Source of the DNA: Escherichia phage vB_Eco_BGP
Sequence record: OZ035849
Length of the DNA stretch: 64,000 bases
Reading direction: 5' to 3' (one strand)
In this document: one piece after another, positions 14,411-51,483 of the stretch
Layout of the letters: each line of letters starts with the position of its first letter
How positions within the stretch are numbered: position 1 is the stretch's first letter
Made by a program: the position numbers and the translations under genes
Notes under the pieces: model-generated
The model's input: only the letters and a program-made list of their open reading frames with translations
Databases searched by the model: none
Told to the model about the DNA's origin: nothing

Positions 14411-14463
14411 TAGCTTTATGATTATTGGAGTATAATATTCCCGAAACCAAACGAGGATAAGTG

Positions 14464-16281
14464 ATGATTAAGAATGAAATTAAAATTCTGAGCGATATTG
14501 AACATATCAAAAAGCGTAGCGGCATGTATATTGGCTCTTCTGCTAATGAAATGCATGAGCGCTTTCTGTTTGGTAAATGGGAAAGTGTTCAGTATGTACC
14601 TGGTCTTGTTAAGCTTATTGATGAAATTATCGATAACTCAGTAGATGAAGGTATTCGTACTAAGTTTAAATTCGCAAATAAAATTAATGTTACTATTAAA
14701 AACAATCAAGTAACAGTTGAAGATAACGGTCGTGGTATTCCACAGGCGATGGTTAAAACACCTACAGGTGAAGAAATTCCTGGTCCTGTTGCTGCGTGGA
14801 CTATTCCAAAAGCAGGTGGTAACTTCGGTGATGATAAAGAACGCGTCACCGGCGGTATGAATGGTGTTGGTTCTAGTTTGACAAACATTTTTTCTGTGAT
14901 GTTTGTCGGTGAAACTGGCGACGGTCAAAATAATATTGTAGTTCGTTGTTCAAATGGCATGGAAAATAAATCATGGGAAGATATTCCTGGAAAATGGAAA
15001 GGAACTCGTGTTACTTTCATTCCTGATTTTATGTCATTTGAAACTAATGAGCTGTCCCAAGTTTATCTTGACATTACACTAGATCGTCTCCAGACACTTG
15101 CAGTAGTTTATCCTGATATTCAATTTACCTTTAATGGTAAAAAGGTTCAGGGCAATTTTAAGAAATATGCACGACAGTATGATGAACATGCTATTGTTCA
15201 AGAACAAGAAAATTGTTCTATTGCGGTTGGTCGTTCACCGGATGGTTTTCGTCAATTAACATACGTCAATAACATTCATACTAAGAATGGTGGCCATCAC
15301 ATTGACTGCGTTATGGATGATATTTGTGAAGACCTTATTCCACAAATCAAACGTAAGTTCAAAATTGATGTAACTAAAGCGCGTGTTAAAGAATGTTTGA
15401 CTATCGTTATGTTTGTTCGTGATATGAAAAACATGCGATTTGATTCTCAAACTAAAGAGCGTTTGACTTCTCCATTTGGCGAAATTCGTAGTCATATTCA
15501 ACTTGACGCTAAAAAGATTTCACGCGCTATTCTAAATAATGAAGCAATTCTGATGCCAATTATTGAAGCTGCCTTGGCTCGTAAATTGGCGGCAGAAAAA
15601 GCAGCAGAAACTAAAGCAGCTAAAAAGGCTTCTAAAGCTAAGGTTCATAAACATATTAAAGCGAATCTTTGTGGTAAAGACGCTGACACTACTCTTTTCT
15701 TGACTGAGGGTGATTCTGCTATCGGATATCTTATTGATGTTCGTGATAAAGAACTTCATGGTGGTTATCCATTGCGTGGTAAAGTTCTCAACAGTTGGGG
15801 TATGTCATATGCCGATATGCTTAAAAACAAAGAACTGTTTGACATTTGCGCAATCACTGGATTAGTTCTTGGTGAAAAGGCTGAAAACTTGAATTATCAT
15901 AATATTGCTATTATGACCGATGCTGACCACGATGGTCTAGGAAGCATTTATCCTTCTCTGCTCGGATTTTTTAGTAATTGGCCAGAACTGTTTGAACAAG
16001 GAAGAATTCGCTTCGTCAAAACTCCTGTAATCATCGCTCAGGTCGGTAAAAAACAAGAATGGTTTTATACAGTCGCTGAATATGAGAGTGCCAAAGATGC
16101 TCTACCTAAACATAGCATCCGTTATATTAAAGGACTTGGCTCTTTGGAAAAATCTGAATATCGTGAAATGATTCAAAATCCAGTATATGATGTTGTTAAA
16201 CTTCCTGAGAACTGGAAAGAGCTTTTTGAAATGCTCATGGGAGATAATGCTGACCTTCGCAAAGAATGGATGAGTCAGTAG
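14464..16281 (+). CDS. 39: DNA topoisomerase II large subunit, uninterrupted (T4 39 plus 60 equivalent)
   Basis: 605 aa from ATG 14464; GyrB-like ATPase N-terminus and TOPRIM C-terminus in one frame. Confidence 0.9.
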   Translation: MIKNEIKILSDIEHIKKRSGMYIGSSANEMHERFLFGKWESVQYVPGLVKLIDEIIDNSVDEGIRTKFKFANKINVTIKNNQVTVEDNGRGIPQAMVKTPTGEEIPGPVAAWTIPKAGGNFGDDKERVTGGMNGVGSSLTNIFSVMFVGETGDGQNNIVVRCSNGMENKSWEDIPGKWKGTRVTFIPDFMSFETNELSQVYLDITLDRLQTLAVVYPDIQFTFNGKKVQGNFKKYARQYDEHAIVQEQENCSIAVGRSPDGFRQLTYVNNIHTKNGGHHIDCVMDDICEDLIPQIKRKFKIDVTKARVKECLTIVMFVRDMKNMRFDSQTKERLTSPFGEIRSHIQLDAKKISRAILNNEAILMPIIEAALARKLAAEKAAETKAAKKASKAKVHKHIKANLCGKDADTTLFLTEGDSAIGYLIDVRDKELHGGYPLRGKVLNSWGMSYADMLKNKELFDICAITGLVLGEKAENLNYHNIAIMTDADHDGLGSIYPSLLGFFSNWPELFEQGRIRFVKTPVIIAQVGKKQEWFYTVAEYESAKDALPKHSIRYIKGLGSLEKSEYREMIQNPVYDVVKLPENWKELFEMLMGDNADLRKEWMSQ

Positions 16282-29053: not shown

Positions 29054-32000
29054 TTACATAAGTTTAGATTCAAGTTCTTTTACACGAGAAGAAAGCGTTT
29101 TCACAGCTTCAACCAGAAGAGCGATCTGGGCTTGAGAAGAAACAGTGAGTATTTTATTACCCCTGCTGTCTTCTGTTTCACGGACAGCTTCTGGTAAAAC
29201 GTCTTGTAACGTTTGAGCCACAATACCCGCTTCAGTTTCAATTGCCTCTCCACCGATGTATTCAGCTTTATCATAAATGACACCATTAAGTTTTTCAACT
29301 TTATCAAGTGCATTTTCGATAGGTTTGAAGTTAGATTTTAAACGAATATCAGAACGAATATAAACGTTTGGAGCATTTATATTTTTATATGAGTACAAAT
29401 CACCGTTTTGGAAACGGAACACTTGCACGTTGTTCGCATATATGTCTAATAATCCATCGCCATTTTGCTTAATACCAGTATCGCTATCACCAAATGCTAT
29501 ACTATTTCCACCAAGTGCGTTATTGATATTAATACCAAATGAATTCATTTGATTAACACCAGCTACAGTAGCATTATTTACTACAAAGCGGTTAGCTCCA
29601 CCTGGAGCTTTTTCAAAGTAAGCAATATAGTTAGTTTCATCGGCAATTTCAATACGGTTACCGCGAGAAGCATCGCCAGCATGAAATATTCTCATATTTC
29701 TCGGGTTAGCACCAGACTTATCAAAGTTAATGCTTCCATTATTTTTGATGTTAAGGCCATTATAAAACTCTGATACCCCAGAAACGCTCATAGAGTTTGA
29801 AATAGTTACTTTACCTGAAGCGATATTGATAGAAAAAGGTCTCAAGCTATTATAAGAACCCGAGGCTTTAGTTTTATCAGTATCGGTATTTTTATCTGTT
29901 AATAATATGTGGAACGTAGTACCATCATTATAAAACAGAGCAGCTGCAGAGCCACTTTCGTCGCCGTTAGATTTGTGACGGTATCCTATAGTAGTATTTG
30001 CCACAAAAGTTGCATTTGTAGAAATATTAGAACTACCCGCGTCAAAAACGCCTGAGCTATTATTAAGAAGTTTAAAAACACGACCTTTAACAATATCTAC
30101 AGGAAGCTCTTCTACCGGTGATTGCGTAGGCCCATATAATCCATGAACTACCACAGAAGCATTTTCTGAAGTGCTATATTCTATGGTAAGTCTATTTAAA
30201 TAAGTGCCACAACTAATATAAACATCATACTCATCGCCTGAGGTATTAATATACGCAATATCTTTAATAGCATCTGTTTCACGTTGCCACAAAACACCGT
30301 TAATTCCTTTAGGTGTATTATTACCAGAACGTAATACAATTTCATTAATTGTTGCTTGTTCGAAAATACCAACGTTAAAACCGGAACCGCCTGTTATTTT
30401 AAATTGGACCGTAGCTACACCTTGAGGCATAGTTACTGTTGCCAATTTATACCAACCGCTTACAGAAGAATAGTTAATCCAGCCGGTAGTTACTTTACGG
30501 TTTAAAGTCGTATTTAGGTTAGCAAAGTTACCAGAACCACCGGTAATATTACCGTCTGTTCCGATACGAATATTTCCAGCACCTAATTTACCAGGAGAGT
30601 AAAAATCACCATTTTTGTTAAATTCCCAGCCTAAATCCTTTATAATCGCACCAGTTGAACCGCCATCACCACCTTCATGATAATGAACTCTAAAATTACC
30701 GCCATTAATTAAAGTACCAATAGAATAGCAACTATTATTTTGTACGTATCTCTGTTTAACAATTGGAACGTAAGTACTTGTATCTGTGCGATTAATATTC
30801 ATATAGAACGGAGCACGGACGTTTTCATTATTTTGCGAAGCAAATGAACCTGCACCGGCTGGACGAACGGCATCAGTGCATTCTGCATCAATATATGTCG
30901 ACTGCCCCAATTGCATTCTAAAGTTGGCATTAATGCGAGAGTTACTGTTTATAGTAGTTAAAGCATTATTTTGATCTACTATAAAAGAATCTCTTCCTAA
31001 CCCAACCATGCCATCGCTTAATCCTATTCTAACAGGTCTTAAAGAGCTGTGAATGTCTCCACTTTCGCCTTCATTTTGATTGGTTGGAATAATATAAAAG
31101 TTACTTTCTGAACGACGGAAAATAGCGCCATATTCGGCGTTCCAAATTCTCAATGCGTTTGCTGTTCCGCCAAATTTAGCCTGACCATTTACTGACATGC
31201 CATTATTGGCAACTAAACTTGATTCAGTAACAATAGAACCAGATGATGTAATACCCCCACCAGTTAATAATGCTCCAGCAATTCTGAATTGAACTACTCC
31301 AGTTGTTGAACCTGCCGCAGGAGCTACACGCTGCGCATAAAAATAATAACCTTGTCCATCAGCTACTTCAAAAACTGATTCACGAGCGCGATCGCCAGAT
31401 GTGTTAAAGGCGTTACCCCATGCTTTGATAGATAGATAACTTTTATTCTGACCTGGGCGAGTACCGCCGGCCCACAATATAGTTTTAGTGCCATCTGTTG
31501 TTGTAGGAGCGTCAAGTTGAATACCGTCGGGTCTAGCACCAGTAAGAACTAATCCGTTATCAAATTTAATTCTTTGTATTGAAGATACTGTTCCGTCAGC
31601 ATAAAACTGTACGTTATTAGAGCCAGTTACCAATTTCAAAATACCCGGATTAACTTCCATGCCTTCTTGAGTATTAATATTAGTTTTTCCTTTACCACGG
31701 AAATAGTGGTTCATTTTACCGCCAGAGTTATATCCAATATGGGTTTGACCGTCTCCAGCAGTGTTTTCATCAGCCTGTGTTTGAACCGATAAAAACGCGG
31801 CGTTCGTTCCAGGCATATTCCATGTTCCGCCTTGGTCTTCTGAACGTCCAAATAATGCTTTACGAGTACTACGGAAACTGTCAGGAGTAATAGACGCGAT
31901 AGAAAGACCATTAGCAACTAAATCATATACACCAGATCTTTTATATGATACACCAGTTGCGGCATCTCCAATGACTATATAGCATTCACCCATTGCTCCA

Positions 32001-32923
32001 GTGGAGCCGTAATTATTAATGTTTTCATCTGTTGTAATTGTACCAATTGCGAGTGAGCGTCGCAACACTAAAGACCCATCATTGCGAAGGCCCATTTGTT
32101 TATTAACGGCTGTATTACCGGTCCACCAAGACAGTTCATCACTTTTTCCGGTTTGTGCAGAAGCTAATTCATGATAAATCGTACCACCAGATTTTGCACG
32201 GAATTTACGAAGGTAATTAATTCCGTTTGTTTCACCAGTTCCAGGATAAACATATTGAACTAATGACTGCGAATCGTATTGTCCAAACGCTTTCGTATCA
32301 AATGAAATATTTTTAGTTACAACAGATGGACCAATCAAAGAACCTGTTCTTGTTTCAATATTACTCTGAGCGACTAAATACCCACCAGATACTAATAAAT
32401 TACCAGAATCAACTTGAAAATTACCTGAGCGCGCAAATGTCCAATATTTAGATTGACCAGTTTCATCAATATAATGAATCTTCAACGAACCTTCAGAAAC
32501 TAAAGTACCTAATGAAAAAGTTCCATCTTTAAAGCGCTGTTTAATTATAGGATTATATTCAGATGTGGAAGTAGCTGAGCTTAAATCTACAAAAATTGGA
32601 GCTTTCGCAGTATGTTGACCGGACCAAGCCCCACTTCCAGTAGTACGATAATTAAACTCAATATATCCACCACTTGCTATAATCTGTGGGCCAATTAAAT
32701 TAAATTTTCCAGTCTGTGTATAATCACCAGTTTGAGTGATATTACCACTGATATTACCGCCAGCGGAAATGCTTAAGTCAATGATATTTCCTGAATCGTC
32801 TTTAGTAAAAATTGTTCTATCTTTTAAATTTATAGCCAATTCACCTTCGGCTAATACTGAAGCAGCAGGACGTGCACCTGCGGTTTTGCTTCTTTTAAAT
32901 TGTATTTGTTTTAAAGTAGCCAT
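29054..32923 (-). CDS. 37: long tail fibre distal subunit gp37
   Basis: 1289 aa; N-terminus [13 protein letters not shown] as T4 gp37; C-terminus differs from T4 and resembles an intramolecular chaperone domain. Confidence 0.9.
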
Positions 32924-34780: not shown

Positions 34781-37700
34781 TTATTCAACCCATTCAAATT
34801 TAACCGTTTTATTCACTGGGTCAGGAATAATGCGAACATTACCAATTCGTAAGAAATCACGAATAGTAAGATTCCCCATTGTAGCATTATCAGATGGTAA
34901 AGCACCGATATCAGACGGCTGAGGAGGGTTACCTCCATCAAATACCTGAACAAAACTTGACCAAGAGTTTTTGGTTTTCTGCCATGTACGTGTCCAGCGA
35001 GTGGTACGTGCTTCTGGAGTCGTTGGATAAGTAATCCAATCTTGGTAAAGCGAATCAAGTGTGTTACCAAACTGAGTCAATGTACCAGGAGATTTAACTT
35101 CTTCGCCACGTTCTAAGTATGGAAGCCCAGTCACTTCATTAGTTTTTTCAACCATTTTAAAATAACCTGGGAACTGGTTATAAGTAGCTGAATCATTAAT
35201 ATCGATTGACCAGAATCCTACAGTATCAGACGTTGGCGCACGGGTATATAAGTCAGATGTTTTAGTGCCCTGAGAACGAATTCTCGAGTTAACAGTTAAA
35301 CCACCTGAATTTATAGTAGCACCTTTGGCAATGATTAAGCTTTCACCAATCGTTACTTGACCAGATGCATTATTAATAGCTAAAGGACGTAATCCATTAA
35401 ATCCGCCAGTCTGATCACCCGATGCAGTAAGCATAAAATAGGTGTTAGCAGCATCATTGCGAATAAAGAATCCATAGTCGCCATTTATTGCTCTGAAAGC
35501 ATTTGCAGACTTGCTGATGAATTCACCATTAGCAGTAACTGAACTACCAAATGTTGCAACGCCGTTCGCATTCAAAGAACCCGAAGCATTAACATTTATT
35601 GGCATTACAGTACCATTGATACTAAACGTTATATTCCCAGCTTTATTGCGTTGAGAATAAAAGTGATTAGACGTTTCATCACCAACTTCAAATACAGTAG
35701 AACGCATTGTATCTGAACCGCCACCAAACTGATTTCCCCAAACTCTGATAGTCATCGTCTGCGCTGGGTTAGTTCCAGTTTGAGGTCCTTTCTCAAAAAT
35801 CAGACGAGTTGCCGTTCCAGTATTAGAAATAGTTAATGTGCTGTTTGCCGAAACTGATCCGCCAAACGTAGCAGTACTAGATGATACAAGAGGGGCACTC
35901 AGATTCGTTTGTTGAGTTAAGGTTAGTGAACCATTAACTGTCTGTGCAATATCCCTACGAATGAACTGAGATGAATCTAGACCATCCAATAAATTTGTAT
36001 CAGCAGCTTTTGCTTTTAATGGCAAATAATTTGCTAATACACGGTTTAATTCATATGGTGATACTGCATAGCTGTTTTTCTCGTATAGCTCTAAGTCCTG
36101 CGTAGAACCAGCTGTATCATTACCAACGAATGTAATTGAACCAGATGAAGTTTTAACAAAGCCTCTTATCGCAGTAGTAGCTGCCCAAGTAGGTTCACTC
36201 TGCACAATCCATTTTAAATTTTTTGGAGATACAGCAGTATTTGCTGATGTTCCAGTCACAGTTTCAGACTGAGTTGCAACTTTAATAACACCTTCTTGCG
36301 ATTCGGTAGATTTAGTACCTAAAAGCTTTTTAGGAGTTATTAAAACATTATCTAATGTTCCTGCAGCAGCTTCAACCTGTGTAGCTACACGAAGTGTACC
36401 ACGCTGTGTCTCATTTGCTTCAAGAATATTAAGGGTATAATGGTCCCAGAGAGTTCCTGATTCAACTAATCCAGATAGAGCAACAACAGAAGTACGATCA
36501 GTACTATTAAATCTAGTTTTAATTTTTAATGGTGTAGAGATACGAGTATCGTCGACGCCTGCGTCGAATTCAACTTGTGTAGCAATTTCAGCTATACCAC
36601 TTAAACTTTCAGTTGCTCTACGGTCATTTAAAGTTTTAGGAGTGACTGCACGAGTATAATCAGTTCCTGTATTAACTTCACTTTGTGTAGCAATTTCAAT
36701 TAAACCAATTCTTCCATCAGTTGATGTCTTTTTATGTAACGTTTCTGGCGTTACAACAGCATTTGCCCATCCTTCCTGACTTTGTCCAGCAATTACTTCA
36801 CTTTCAACTGCTAAAATTACTGCACCTTGCTGTGTTGGAGTAGCTTTATACTGATCCAAAGCTTTAGGTGAAACAACTAAATTATTAGTGTTTTTATTAT
36901 AAACATTCGTACCATTTAATTCACGACTAGAAGCTGGAGTAGCACCTGCAGTAGATACAAAAGTTACAATACCAGATAATGATTCAGAACCTTGGCGAGC
37001 TTGAAGCTTTTTAGGAGTGATGATTGTAGTATCATCAGTACCTGTATTAGTTTCCTGCTGCGTAGCAATTTCAGCAACACCTCTACGAGTTTCTGTAGCA
37101 GTTCTTTCATTCAGCTTTTTAGGAGTAATGATAAGGTCATCTGCAAAAGAGAATGTGGTGTTCTGATTCACTTGAGCAGTAGTTGCTATTCTTGCGATAC
37201 CTCTACGAGTTTCAGTAGCAGTACGATTAGCTAATGTTTCTGGAGTAATTGCTAATTCTTTTTGTGGAGAATTTTCTAAATCGACATTAGCTTGAGCTTG
37301 TGTAGCTAAAGCAATTACGCCTAATCTTGCTCTAGTAGAATCATTTAAAGAGTCTACTCTTTCTACAGTTGGAACGTTTTGCTGTACAACCCAGTATTTT
37401 CCATCAGAATCTTCTATATAAGCAAGCTGTAAAACTGGAACATAATTAGTTTCACCGTTAAAAACTAATTCTTGAACAGTTACCCATTTAGTTTCAGGCG
37501 GATATTCTGAACGTTTTGGGAATTGCAGCAATTGAACTGAAGAAGCAATTTTATCTTCGCCCGCAGCTTTGATTTTAACTGTTTGTCCTTTTCTCATGTA
37601 ATTCATGGAAATTTTAACAGTATCACCAACAGAAATATTAGTTGGAAGCTGAAGCTCAATTGTTTGAGTTGTTCCGTTATTCGCACCAAATACCATGACT

Positions 37701-38650
37701 TCTTCGTTTGGACGAATATTAGAATTAGTCGTTATAATGCGTAAACGTGCTTTACTATCCCCGTCAAACAATCTCCACAATTTCTCATTATCATCAAACA
37801 TCAAGAAACCGTCAATCGATGTACGGCCTTCAATGGAATGAGTTCCAACTTCTTGTACTGAAGTCGTTTCATCGTATGTAGTAACAATTGTATGATAAAG
37901 TGGATTCAGTTTATCTAAATCAACGAAATTAATAATATCGCCATGATTAGCAAATCTTGGAAGTTTAACATTAATTGGTGCAGCAGAAGTAAATCTACGT
38001 ACGATAAAATCATTTGATTGCGCTTGATAAGTATTCGCTGGTGTTACAACTACAGCTTCTCTACTATAATCAGCAACATACATTTGCCACAGACGATTAC
38101 TAAAAATTAAAACTAGCTGTGACTTTGGATGAGTCATTAGTACTGAACGTACTTGCTCGCCTCTGAAGTTTACAATACTTTGCACCGGAGCTACAATTAA
38201 AACTTGGTTAACTCCAGGTTTTCCTCCAATATCTTGGAGAACGATAGTATCACCATCAATTGGGGTAGATGGTAAAGTAAATGTAATATCATTACCAGCT
38301 GCGGTGTTAACCGAAATAGCTTCACCAGATTTTAATTGATATGAACCAGATGAAACCGTAATCCAGTTAGCATCGGTACGTAATGCTCTCCAGCGTCCGC
38401 TATTAAAAGCTCCTGCCGGTTTTGGAATATCATTTATAGCAGCCCAAAAGCGGTTATCATAAATGATTACAAAATCTTTTAAATATCCACGAGTTGGATC
38501 GTATTGTTGAACTGTGTTTTCTTGAATTAAGTAATCAACGTTAACACCGTCAGTTCCTACGGTACGATCAGCTAAAGCTACGTTGATTATTTTATCACCA
38601 CCTGCGTCCAGACCGTCTTCTGCTCTGAACTTTCTTTTAATCTCGGCCAT
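34781..38650 (-). CDS. 34: long tail fibre proximal subunit gp34
   Basis: 1289 aa; matches T4 gp34; internal repeats of about 35 aa (ITPKKL...ATQ). Confidence 0.95.
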   Translation of the reverse strand: MAEIKRKFRAEDGLDAGGDKIINVALADRTVGTDGVNVDYLIQENTVQQYDPTRGYLKDFVIIYDNRFWAAINDIPKPAGAFNSGRWRALRTDANWITVSSGSYQLKSGEAISVNTAAGNDITFTLPSTPIDGDTIVLQDIGGKPGVNQVLIVAPVQSIVNFRGEQVRSVLMTHPKSQLVLIFSNRLWQMYVADYSREAVVVTPANTYQAQSNDFIVRRFTSAAPINVKLPRFANHGDIINFVDLDKLNPLYHTIVTTYDETTSVQEVGTHSIEGRTSIDGFLMFDDNEKLWRLFDGDSKARLRIITTNSNIRPNEEVMVFGANNGTTQTIELQLPTNISVGDTVKISMNYMRKGQTVKIKAAGEDKIASSVQLLQFPKRSEYPPETKWVTVQELVFNGETNYVPVLQLAYIEDSDGKYWVVQQNVPTVERVDSLNDSTRARLGVIALATQAQANVDLENSPQKELAITPETLANRTATETRRGIARIATTAQVNQNTTFSFADDLIITPKKLNERTATETRRGVAEIATQQETNTGTDDTTIITPKKLQARQGSESLSGIVTFVSTAGATPASSRELNGTNVYNKNTNNLVVSPKALDQYKATPTQQGAVILAVESEVIAGQSQEGWANAVVTPETLHKKTSTDGRIGLIEIATQSEVNTGTDYTRAVTPKTLNDRRATESLSGIAEIATQVEFDAGVDDTRISTPLKIKTRFNSTDRTSVVALSGLVESGTLWDHYTLNILEANETQRGTLRVATQVEAAAGTLDNVLITPKKLLGTKSTESQEGVIKVATQSETVTGTSANTAVSPKNLKWIVQSEPTWAATTAIRGFVKTSSGSITFVGNDTAGSTQDLELYEKNSYAVSPYELNRVLANYLPLKAKAADTNLLDGLDSSQFIRRDIAQTVNGSLTLTQQTNLSAPLVSSSTATFGGSVSANSTLTISNTGTATRLIFEKGPQTGTNPAQTMTIRVWGNQFGGGSDTMRSTVFEVGDETSNHFYSQRNKAGNITFSINGTVMPINVNASGSLNANGVATFGSSVTANGEFISKSANAFRAINGDYGFFIRNDAANTYFMLTASGDQTGGFNGLRPLAINNASGQVTIGESLIIAKGATINSGGLTVNSRIRSQGTKTSDLYTRAPTSDTVGFWSIDINDSATYNQFPGYFKMVEKTNEVTGLPYLERGEEVKSPGTLTQFGNTLDSLYQDWITYPTTPEARTTRWTRTWQKTKNSWSSFVQVFDGGNPPQPSDIGALPSDNATMGNLTIRDFLRIGNVRIIPDPVNKTVKFEWVE

Positions 38651-43445: not shown

Positions 43446-44642
<1,197 letters not shown>

Positions 44643-44687: not shown

Positions 44688-45548
44688 ATGAAACAATACC
44701 AAGATTTAATTAAAGACATTTTTGAAAATGGCTATGAAACCGATGACCGAACAGGCACAGGAACAATTGCTTTGTTCGGTACTAAATTGCGTTGGGATTT
44801 AACAAAAGGTTTTCCTGCAGTAACAACTAAAAAGCTCGCCTGGAATGCATGCATTGCTGAGCTTCTATGGTTTATTTCCGGTTCTACCAATGTTAATGAT
44901 TTACGTCTTCGCACTCATGGCAGTCTTATTCAAGGTAAAACTATTTGGGACGATAACTATGAAAACCAAGCTAAAGACCTAGGATATCATAGTGGTGAAC
45001 TTGGTCCTATATACGGTAAACAATGGCGTGATTTCGGTGGTGTGGATCAATTAGTTGAAACTATTGATCGTATTAAAAAATTACCAACTGATCGACGTCA
45101 AATCGTTTCAGCATGGAATCCAGCTGAAATCAATCAAATGGCATTACCGCCCTGTCATATGTTCTATCAGTTTAATGTGCGTAATGGTTATCTTGATTTA
45201 CAATGGTACCAAAGAAGTGTAGATGTTTTCTTGGGATTGCCATTCAACATTGCCTCGTACGCTGCCTTGACGCATATTGTGGCTAAGATGTGTAATCTTA
45301 TCCCAGGAGATTTGATATTTTCTGGTGGTAATACTCACATCTATATGAATCATACTGAGCAATGTAAAGAAATTTTACGTCGTGAGCCTAAAGAACTGTG
45401 TGAACTTAAAATTGATTGGCCTATAGAGTTTGGAAATTGTGACACCGAAACACAGCTTTACTGGTTAACTGAATACATGAAACCGAAAGATTTTATCCTT
45501 GAAAATTATGAATCGCATCCAGCAATTAAAGGGAAAATGGCAATATGA
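44688..45548 (+). CDS. td: thymidylate synthase Td (no intron)
   Basis: 286 aa contiguous ORF; matches T4 Td spliced product. Confidence 0.95.
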
Positions 45549-48343: not shown

Positions 48344-48387
48344 TATAATGTGACTCATGGACGAGTCACTAACAAATGAGAAATAAT

Positions 48388-49179
48388 ATGAAATACTGTT
48401 CGGCAATAACCTACCCAGGTTCAAAACACAAATACATGGATTTTATTAATAGATTCGTATTGGGCTTTGATGATAATATAGTTTTAGATGCCTTTTGTGG
48501 CGGCCTCGGATTTTCTATGAATTGTGGTCGCCGTGTTGAGTGTAATGATATTAATTTTCATCTTATTAATATGTATAACAAGATGAAAGAGTCTTCATTT
48601 AATGATATACTCCAAATCATTGATGATTTTGGTTTAAATGACGTGGACCCTAAACCATTTTATTCTCTAGCAAAAGAATATGATAAAACCAAAAACGGGC
48701 TATATTTATATGTTCTGCATTTATTTGCATTCAGTTCGATGTTAAAATTTTCTAAAGATGATAAGTATATAGCTTCTTTTGCAAATAGAGCCAAATATTC
48801 TAGAACTTCTTTTAATAAATCACAACAAGATAAATTCGCAGCTTTTAAAAATCGTCAACATTTGTTAAGTTTTTCAAATAAATCATTCAGAGATTTAGAT
48901 TTTGAAAACAAGAACTTATTTATCGACCCACCATATCTTTCTACTAAATTTAAATATTCAGGGTGGGAAGAAAAGGATGAATTAGAATTATTAGATAAAA
49001 TTAAACGATCAAAGTCTAAATTTATTATTACTAATAATCTATCAGATGATATTGATAATAACATTCTAAAAGATTGGGCCCTTTCTAATAATTTCAAAAT
49101 TGAATATTTTAAAACCAGATACCAAAAAATATCAAAAGGCGTATCATTTCAGACTGAAGTGCTTATACATAATATGTGA
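48388..49179 (+). CDS. second Dam-family N6-adenine DNA methyltransferase (divergent paralogue)
   Basis: YPGSK, AFCGGLGFS (motif I) and DPPY (motif IV) in the same order as the Dam at 1963; rough by-eye identity about a third; alternative ATG at 48376. Confidence 0.8.
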   Translation: MKYCSAITYPGSKHKYMDFINRFVLGFDDNIVLDAFCGGLGFSMNCGRRVECNDINFHLINMYNKMKESSFNDILQIIDDFGLNDVDPKPFYSLAKEYDKTKNGLYLYVLHLFAFSSMLKFSKDDKYIASFANRAKYSRTSFNKSQQDKFAAFKNRQHLLSFSNKSFRDLDFENKNLFIDPPYLSTKFKYSGWEEKDELELLDKIKRSKSKFIITNNLSDDIDNNILKDWALSNNFKIEYFKTRYQKISKGVSFQTEVLIHNM

Positions 49180-49213: not shown

Positions 49214-49889
49214 ATGTCTACAGTTTTTAATACAAATCCAGTTGATGTTTTAAAAGAACCTATGTTTTTTGGTTCAGGTCTTGGTATTGCACGTTATGAT
49301 ATTCAACGGCATCGAGTATTTGAAGAACTTACTGAGAAGTCCTTATCATTTTTCTGGCGTCCTGAAGAAGTAAACTTAATGATGGATGCTGCACAATTTA
49401 ATAAGCTTCCTCAGTATCAGCAAAATATTTTTACTAATAACCTGAAGTATCAATCACTTTTGGATAGCATTCAGGGTCGTGCGCCATCTGCTGTACTTAT
49501 GTCATTAATTTCAGACCCAAGCCTTGATACATGGGTTGCTACATGGACTTTTAGTGAAACTATTCACAGTCGTTCATATACTCATATCATGCGAAATCTT
49601 TATACTGATCCGTCAAAGGTATTTGATGAGATTGTATTAGATGAAGCTATCATGAAACGTGCTGAATCCATTGGGCGTTATTATGATGATGTTCTGATTA
49701 AAACCCGTGAATGGGAAAATGCTAAAGAATTTGTAGAACTAGCTAAAGAATCTCCTGATGCTGTCTTTCGTTTAAACCGAGCTATTAAACAAGAAGCCGA
49801 AGCTAAACGTGCTTTAATGAAATCTCTTTACCTCTGTTTGCACGTTATTAATGCCTTAGAAGCTATTCGTTTTTATGTATCTTTTGCGT
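49214..49889 (+). CDS. nrdB: ribonucleotide reductase small subunit NrdB, exon 1
   Basis: Class Ia R2 N-terminal part; frame ends ...FYVSFA then stops 1 nt into the intron. Confidence 0.85.
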
Positions 49890-49999
49890 AAAATGCGCCT
49901 TTAAACGGTAACGTTTATCGAAAACTCCTTTAATTGCTGGAAAGTCCTTTATAGGAAAACTAGCAGCCAAGGTTTTGCTTGCACCTTTAATTAGTATAA

Positions 50000-50007
50000 T
50001 ATAAATA
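50000..50007 (+). promoter_or_regulatory. late promoter TATAAATA inside the intron, upstream of the endonuclease ORF
   Basis: Exact TATAAATA 28 nt before the ORF start, followed by SD AAGAGGA. Confidence 0.45.
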
Positions 50008-50034
50008 TGATTATACTTTTAAGAGGATGCACAA

Positions 50035-50844
50035 TTGAACTATAGAAAAATTTGGATAGATGCTAACGGACCTATACCTAAAGATTCCGATGGAAGAACA
50101 TACGAAATCCATCATAAAGACGGTAACCGTGAAAATAATGATTTAGATAATTTGATGTGCCTTTCTATACAGGAACATTATGATATACATTTAGCTCAAA
50201 AAGATTACCAGGCTTGTCATGCTATAAAGCTTAGAATGAAATATTCTCCTGAAGAAATTTCTGAATTAGCTTCTAAAGCCGCAAAATCTAGAGAAATCCA
50301 GATTTTTAATATCCCTGAAGTACGAGCTAAAAATATTGCCTCTATTAAATCTAAGATAGAAAATGGTACATTTCATCTTTTAGACGGTGAAATACAGCGT
50401 AAATCTAATTTAAATAGAGTTGCATTAGGTATACATAATTTTCAACAAGCTGAGCATATTGCAAAAGTTAAAGAACGCAATATTGCAGCTATAAAAGAAG
50501 GTACTCATGTATTTTGCGGTGGTAAAATGCAGTCAGAAACTCAATCAAAACGGGTAAATGACGGTTCACATCATTTCTTGTCAGAAGACCATAAGAAAAG
50601 AACATCAGCAAAAACATTAGAAATGGTTAAGAATGGGACCCATCCTGCACAAAAAGAAATCACATGTGATTTCTGCGGTCACATTGGTAAAGGTCCTGGA
50701 TTTTATCTAAAACATAATGACAGATGTAAATTAAATCCAAATAGAATTCAATTGAATTGTCCATATTGTGATAAGAAAGATTTATCACCATCAACATATA
50801 AACGATGGCACGGCGACAATTGCAAAGCAAGGTTCAACGACTAG
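50035..50844 (+). CDS. I-TevIII: intron-encoded HNH homing endonuclease (I-TevIII-like, full length)
   Basis: 269 aa; HNH motif EIHHKDGNRENNDLDNL; zinc-finger Cys pairs; probable TTG start with SD. Confidence 0.75.
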   Translation: MNYRKIWIDANGPIPKDSDGRTYEIHHKDGNRENNDLDNLMCLSIQEHYDIHLAQKDYQACHAIKLRMKYSPEEISELASKAAKSREIQIFNIPEVRAKNIASIKSKIENGTFHLLDGEIQRKSNLNRVALGIHNFQQAEHIAKVKERNIAAIKEGTHVFCGGKMQSETQSKRVNDGSHHFLSEDHKKRTSAKTLEMVKNGTHPAQKEITCDFCGHIGKGPGFYLKHNDRCKLNPNRIQLNCPYCDKKDLSPSTYKRWHGDNCKARFND

Positions 50845-50980
50845 TCTTCGGACGTAGGGTCAAGCGACTCGAAATGGGGAGAATCCCTCTGGGATTGTGA
50901 TATAGTCTGGTCTGCATAGTAATATGTAGCAGTTCATAAGAGAACGGGTTGAGAATTAGCGAGCTCAATCGAACATAACG

Positions 50981-51483
50981 GTACCTTTAACTTCCACAAG
51001 AATATGGAAATCATGGAAGGTAATGCCAAGATTATGAAGTTCATTGCACGTGATGAGCAGCTTCACCTTAAAGGCACTCAATATATTATTCGTCAACTTC
51101 AACTTGGCACTGATGGCGATGAATGGGTTAAAATTGCTCAAGAGTGTGAACAAGAAGCAGTTGATATTTTCATGGAAGTTAACCGCCAAGAAAAAGATTG
51201 GGCAGTTCATTTATTTAAAGATGGCGATGTTCCTGGATTAAATACAAATAGCATGTGGAGCTTTATTGATTACTTAACTGTATCTCGTATGAAACAGTGT
51301 GGTCTTCCATGCCCGATTACCGATGCTCCGGTTAAACATCCATATCCTTGGATTCGTGAATATCTTAATTCTGATAATGTTCAATCCGCGCCACAAGAAG
51401 TAGAACTGTCATCTTACCTTGTTGCACAGATTGATAATGATGTTGATGATAAAGTTATGATGAGTTTTAAAAAATACTTTTAA
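50981..51483 (+). CDS. nrdB: ribonucleotide reductase small subunit NrdB, exon 2
   Basis: Continues ...C-TFNFHKNMEIMEGNAK...; R2 C-terminal region. Confidence 0.85.

Follow-up and report, generated by a model that had tools for sequence, protein, structure and literature searches.

A very probable RB3-type group I intron with an intact I-TevIII gene in nrdB of Escherichia phage vB_Eco_BGP

The nrdB gene of Escherichia phage vB_Eco_BGP (record OZ035849) is interrupted by an insert of 1091 nt. This insert is almost certainly the nrdB group I intron known from T-even phages, in its RB3 form and with the I-TevIII gene intact. The window (the whole stretch of 64,000 nt that was analysed) holds nothing that contradicts this reading; splicing, late transcription and endonuclease activity are transferred from T4 and RB3 and thus should be read as predictions. 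The element itself is already known: the RB3 nrdB intron with I-TevIII was described in 1991 (Eddy & Gold 1991, Genes Dev 5:1032, as cited in PMC2790892), and I-TevIII was characterised biochemically in 2007 (Robbins et al. 2007, PMC1865063). The parts of the interrupted gene are as follows.

49214..49889, + strand: nrdB exon 1, codons 1-225 and the first base of Cys226; from the ORF list; Pfam Ribonuc_red_sm positions 9-141
49890..50980, + strand: almost certain group I intron, IA2-type, RB3 type, 1091 nt; boundaries from the intron-less allele
50981..51483, + strand: nrdB exon 2, in-frame continuation after the join; Pfam Ribonuc_red_sm positions 177-271

The exon 1 ORF (49214..49891) covers residues 1-225 of the ribonucleotide reductase small subunit and ends with ...RFYVSFA, followed by the stop codon TAA across 49889-49891. 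The second R2-like ORF is found downstream (51004..51483 in the ORF list). Joining of 49889 (T) to 50981 (G) produces an in-frame CDS of 1179 nt encoding an R2 protein of 392 aa, which reads ...RFYVSFACTFNFHKNMEIMEGNAK... across the junction (the fuller stretch is ...FYVSFACTFNFHKNMEIMEGNAK...). The joined nrdB RNA at this point, as predicted from the exon sequence, is ...UUUGCGU^GUACCUUU..., where ^ marks the junction. Residues 3-388 of the spliced protein align with E. coli NrdB (1piy, E = 1.8e-125), and the alignment covers the junction (FYVSFACTFNF vs FYVSFACSFAF).

The boundaries can be set exactly by comparison with intron-less alleles. A query of 400 nt made of the exon ends matches the intron-less nrdB of phage vB-Eco-KMB22 in one piece (400/400 nt, 98.8% identity), and many other T-even-like phages match the spliced-junction query likewise. 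In the multiple alignment the insert is exactly 49890-50980, and the insertion point lies between the first and the second base of the conserved cysteine codon in ...FYVSFAC.... The base before the intron is U (49889), and the last base of the intron is G (50980). The first-pass annotation had placed the exon 1 stop one nucleotide after ...FYVSFA, had claimed that the 49889/50981 join restores R2, and had estimated an intron of about 1091 nt with a 3'-terminal G; all three statements agree with these data. Junctions shifted by one base would read GCG^GGT (Ala-Gly) or GCGTA^TACC. Both conflict with the intron-less alleles (GC(G/A)TGTACC) and with the conserved FAC motif, and were rejected. In the intron-less allele of vB-Eco-KMB22 the alanine codon before the insertion site is GCA and not GCG (window 49888), which is a silent change; the same position is paired in P1 of the intron-plus phages.

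The insert contains a complete group I core in two halves.

49886..49997, + strand: 5' half of the ribozyme core with P1, P2 (GUAA loop), P3 5' strand, P4, P5, P6 5' strand and a P6a-like hairpin; hand-assigned
50831..50980, + strand: 3' half of the ribozyme core with P6', P7, P7.1, P7.2, P3', P8, P7', P9, P9.1, P9.2 and terminal G50980; cmscan alignment and helix check

The helices were assigned by hand and are complementary throughout. P1 has 4 bp (GCGU/GCGC, 49886-49889/49895-49898) and includes the U49889·G49895 wobble at the 5' splice site. P2 is AAACG-GUAA-CGUUU. It is followed by P3 (49925-30/50876-81), P4 (49935-40/49960-65), P5 (49945-48/49953-56), P6 (49966-68/50831-33), the P6a-like hairpin (49969-73/49983-87) and P7 (50839-43/50903-07). 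Two more hairpins, again assigned by hand, lie between P7 and P3': P7.1, GUC-UUCG-GAC (50844-50853), and P7.2, GGGUC-AAGC-GACUC (50857-50870). Extra helices P7.1/P7.2 at this place define subgroup IA2. The R element GUUCAACGACUA and the S element GAUAUAGUCU are seen in the cmscan alignment. The loop that separates the P6a-like hairpin from P6' contains the endonuclease ORF, whose last codons and stop overlap P6'/P7.

The Rfam scan of the whole window at gathering thresholds produced no match; the ORF insert makes this a false negative. A focused scan gave a partial match to RF00028 (33.9 bits, E = 1.5e-6), below the gathering score of 50, because the insert of about 830 nt breaks the model alignment. 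In this match the 3' half is aligned correctly (R, P7.1/P7.2, P3', P8, S, P9). The 5' half is forced into the ORF sequence, since the real one lies about 830 nt upstream. An ORF-less variant of the same intron exists in Shigella phage SP21535 (PQ615101), and it matches RF00028 over model positions 1-253/253 with 69.1 bits (E = 1.2e-16; gathering score 50). The window segments 49890-49997 (108 nt) and 50816-50980 (165 nt) are 100% identical to this mini-intron. The covariance-model check that the first-pass annotation had proposed is thus answered by the ORF-less variant, where the identical core scores above the gathering threshold. Few natural variants of the intron exist, and none of them disrupts a helix. 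Two helices carry compensatory changes: in P2 of Salmonella phage S16 an A-U pair is replaced by G-C and a C-G pair by U·G, and in P9 of T4 an A-U pair is replaced by G-C and a G·U pair by G-C.

Guanosine-dependent self-splicing is established for the T4 nrdB intron (mentioned in PMC2790892 and PMC1865063), and splicing is known for the nrdB introns of both T4 and RB3. By analogy with these near-identical elements, the intron would use guanosine as the cofactor to splice itself out of the nrdB pre-mRNA and restore the R2 mRNA.

The closest described relative is the intron of RB3. The identity to the RB3 records X59078.1, AY262130.2 (the nrdA-mobE-nrdB fragment) and KM606994.1 is 99.6-99.7% over 1091 nt, and in these records the annotated nrdB CDS is a join of two segments that enclose I-TevIII. 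The elements share the gene, the insertion site, the 269-aa ORF and the promoter, Shine-Dalgarno and hairpin region; the length is 1090-1091 nt in RB3 and 1091 nt here. They differ in residue 23 of the endonuclease, which is aspartate in RB3 and tyrosine here, and in a few silent positions. The surroundings are different as well: RB3 has mobE between nrdA and nrdB and the I-TevI intron in td, whereas vB_Eco_BGP has a Dam-like methyltransferase gene in the former place and no td intron.

The same data bear on a reading in which there is no splicing at all. The insert would then be a free-standing HNH gene that split nrdB, and the two resulting polypeptides would reassemble, as in the split nrd genes of some T4-like phages. 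Exon 2 does contain an in-frame ATG at 51004 (ORF 51004..51483), and in several database records the gene is entered as two separate 'beta subunit' CDSs. However, the latter are automatic gene calls, there is no Shine-Dalgarno box before 51004, and a start at this codon would cost the protein CTFNFHKN, a conserved segment that is matched in the alignment with E. coli R2. Moreover, the insert has the complete group I core, the U·G 5' splice site and the terminal G, and is 99.7% identical to the intron that is annotated in RB3 within a joined nrdB CDS. We rejected the split-gene reading on account of the core, the RB3 annotation and the missing Shine-Dalgarno box, and leave it practically no probability.

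The RB3-type intron is widespread. Among the matches listed, at least 51 phage records are 99.6-99.8% identical to the full 1091 nt. The intron in some form is found in 128 phage records, of which at least 84 retain at least 80% of its length; the nrdB exon junction region is matched by 639 phage records. Many intron-bearing genomes list nrdB as two 'beta subunit' genes plus a 'hypothetical protein'. Correct annotation is thus the main value of the present analysis, as the exact junction GCGU^GUACC allows for a single spliced nrdB.

The protein encoded within the intron is I-TevIII.

50035..50844, + strand: I-TevIII gene, 269 aa from a TTG start; HNH domain at the N-terminus, two CX2CX12-13HX3C zinc fingers at the C-terminus

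The claim of a full-length HNH ORF inside the intron is confirmed by the Pfam match to HNH_3 (residues 4-48, E = 6e-13) and by the intact catalytic residues. The HNH residues H26, H27, N39 and H48 are present. Both zinc fingers, CDFCGHIGKGPGFYLKHNDRC and CPYCDKKDLSPSTYKRWHGDNC, are found, with C211, C214, C242, C245 and all eight Cys/His intact. The ORF has the same position within the intron as in RB3 and the same TTG start as in the RB3 annotation. The search of PDB sequences with I-TevIII gave no meaningful match. RB3 I-TevIII is the only version whose cleavage activity has been assayed, and the enzyme is weak and labile; alanine substitution of H26, H27, N39 or H48 abolishes cleavage, and the zinc fingers, which also serve dimerisation, are needed for DNA binding (PMC1865063).

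The window ORF and RB3 I-TevIII are identical in 268 of 269 residues. The sole difference, Tyr here and Asp in RB3, is in residue 23 (codon at window 50101-50103), three positions before the catalytic H26. Tyr23 is also present in phage AV119 and in the divergent, 90%-identical copy of phage S16; thus Asp23 is a change specific to the RB3 lineage. According to tblastn, the identical protein is encoded by many phages, which argues for its maintenance by selection or for recent homing.

One may suppose that the intron is as described and the endonuclease is inactive in this phage, being a stagnant passenger like the T4 copy. The only substitution relative to the assayed enzyme, D23Y, is indeed located beside the HNH histidines, and weakness and lability are already seen in the RB3 enzyme. 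However, the ORF is of full length with the catalytic and zinc-finger residues preserved, the distribution of Tyr23 makes aspartate the RB3-specific state, and the same protein recurs in many phages. Loss of activity is therefore very unlikely, and a functional I-TevIII is the preferred reading. It could even be that the common natural Y23 enzyme is substantially more active than the published RB3 enzyme, a suggestion to which we give little credit.

The region between the 5' half of the core and the endonuclease ORF contains several candidate expression signals.

50000..50007, + strand: T4-type late promoter motif TATAAATA; flanks identical to T4
50021..50027, + strand: Shine-Dalgarno box AAGAGGA, 7 nt before the TTG start; read directly from the sequence
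49980..50031, + strand: hairpin pairing with the Shine-Dalgarno box, late promoter motif in the apical part; MFE -14.9 kcal/mol, z = -3.46
49981..49995, + strand: putative I-TevIII operator, similar to the beginning of exon 2 and immediately upstream of the late promoter motif

The first-pass annotation had claimed that the ORF has its own late promoter and Shine-Dalgarno box. Both the motif and the box are present. However, the motif TATAAATA is not enriched in the AT-rich window (9 found vs 10.2 expected from shuffles). Since this is not above chance, the motif alone was rejected as promoter evidence, and its significance derives from the identity with the experimentally mapped T4/RB3 site. 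In T4 late promoters such a motif precedes the start of a late transcript by about 6-8 nt. For the three intron ORFs, promoter mapping by primer extension is reported in a review (PMC2988022). The scan for sigma-70 promoters and terminators around the intron gave background level results, which are irrelevant to T4 late promoters.

The genes of I-TevI, of I-TevII and of I-TevIII share a hairpin that sequesters the ribosome-binding site and is formed only in read-through transcripts (PMC2988022). In the predicted RNA beginning just 3' of the promoter, the Shine-Dalgarno box is unpaired (-1.4 kcal/mol). The segment GCACCTTTAATTAGT (49981-49995) is identical to the first 15 nt of exon 2, GTACCTTTAACTTCC, in 10 of 15 positions, as counted by eye. 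This resemblance fits an I-TevIII operator that has been suggested as putative (PMC2988022).

By similarity to T4 and RB3, the following life cycle can be proposed. Early and middle read-through transcripts would fold into the hairpin masking the ribosome-binding site of I-TevIII. Late initiation at the internal promoter TATAAATA would produce a short mRNA with the free Shine-Dalgarno box, so that I-TevIII would be made late. In mixed infection, the I-TevIII dimer would bind the intron-less nrdB via the zinc-finger domain, and repair of the double-strand break by recombination with the intron-plus genome would copy the intron into the cut allele, which constitutes homing. Mobility, cleavage and dimerisation of I-TevIII are covered in PMC1865063, where homing is 4.3% for the RB3 intron vs <0.1% for the T4 intron.

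The nrdB intron of T4 has the same insertion site, ribozyme core and promoter/Shine-Dalgarno region. However, it is 598 nt long (computed from MT984581) and has no equivalent of window 50099-50589 (491 nt). With this deletion nearly the whole HNH domain is gone and the reading frame is shifted; a remnant of 97 codons is left. In addition, the P8 loop and P9 carry a few substitutions, which are compensatory. The T4 record carries the annotation 'defective DNA endonuclease... active I-TevIII homolog in RB3'. The deleted, inactive T4 ORF mentioned in the first-pass annotation is thus found in the record.

The mini-intron of SP21535 occupies the same insertion site. It differs in being only 300 nt long, having lost the ORF entirely together with 6 nt of the late-promoter motif. 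It is located at 501-800 of the examined sequence and is annotated merely as two hypothetical proteins.

The td gene of vB_Eco_BGP is continuous.

44688..45548, + strand: td, thymidylate synthase, uninterrupted; 286-aa ORF; Thymidylat_synt 1-266/266, E = 7e-96

Since the ORF is contiguous and the Pfam profile is covered completely, td is intron-less, as had been claimed. The td gene of RB3 is joined from two pieces around I-TevI, and in blastn with default settings only the exon 1 part of the window td (1-548) is aligned with it. The T4 td gene has an intron with I-TevI (PMC2988022, Table 1). Thus the reported reversal relative to T4, full-length nrdB ORF and no td intron, is real, the T4 td intron being taken from that source. 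In the proposed scheme, td of this phage would simply be without its optional intron. The combination is not new: phage AV119, whose genome is public, has an uninterrupted td of 861 nt and nrdB split by a full endonuclease gene of 810 nt. A 123-aa ORF with no Pfam match lies between frd and td (44271-44642, + strand), and RB3 and AV119 likewise have a hypothetical ORF between these genes.

The T4 introns td/I-TevI and nrdD/I-TevII are of the same general type: IA2 group I introns in genes of nucleotide metabolism, in which a peripheral loop houses the endonuclease ORF and which have an internal late or middle promoter and a hairpin sequestering the ribosome-binding site (PMC2988022). The enzymes are different: I-TevIII is a dimer of the HNH type, and I-TevI and I-TevII are monomers of the GIY-YIG type. 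In the window neither of these two introns was found; td is intron-less and nrdD is absent from the ORF list.

The slot between nrdA and nrdB (48376-49179, + strand) is occupied by a 267-aa ORF encoding a Dam-like D12-class adenine methyltransferase with the DPPY motif (Pfam, 1.1e-19), whereas in T4 and RB3 the free-standing HNH gene mobE sits there. Similar inserts were found in only 8 phage records, the best being 91% identical (Salmonella phage CF-SP2). The canonical dam of T4 type (1963-2742; Pfam, 6.5e-51) shares only 31% identity with the slot gene, which is the second methyltransferase of this phage. A second, purely speculative and likewise improbable idea is that the methyltransferase in the mobE slot is tied to the traffic of endonucleases at the nrd hotspot, as cargo or as an immunity gene. 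In phages that are otherwise similar, the td, nrdB and mobE elements occur sporadically, in agreement with the nrd/td region being a known hotspot of selfish-element turnover.

Two other regions of the window may be mentioned. The ORF at 14461-16281 (+ strand) encodes a 606-aa GyrB-like topoisomerase subunit (HATPase_c, DNA_gyraseB, TOPRIM_C) and has the appearance of a gene 39 that is not split. In that case the phage would have neither the gene 39/mobA/gene 60 split of T4 nor the translational bypass of gene 60. Two ORFs of 1289 aa, at 29054-32923 and 34781-38650 (both on the - strand), by their position look like genes 37 and 34 of the long tail fibres. With about 32% identity over roughly 200 aa only, the two are not duplicates, and their equal lengths appear to be a coincidence.
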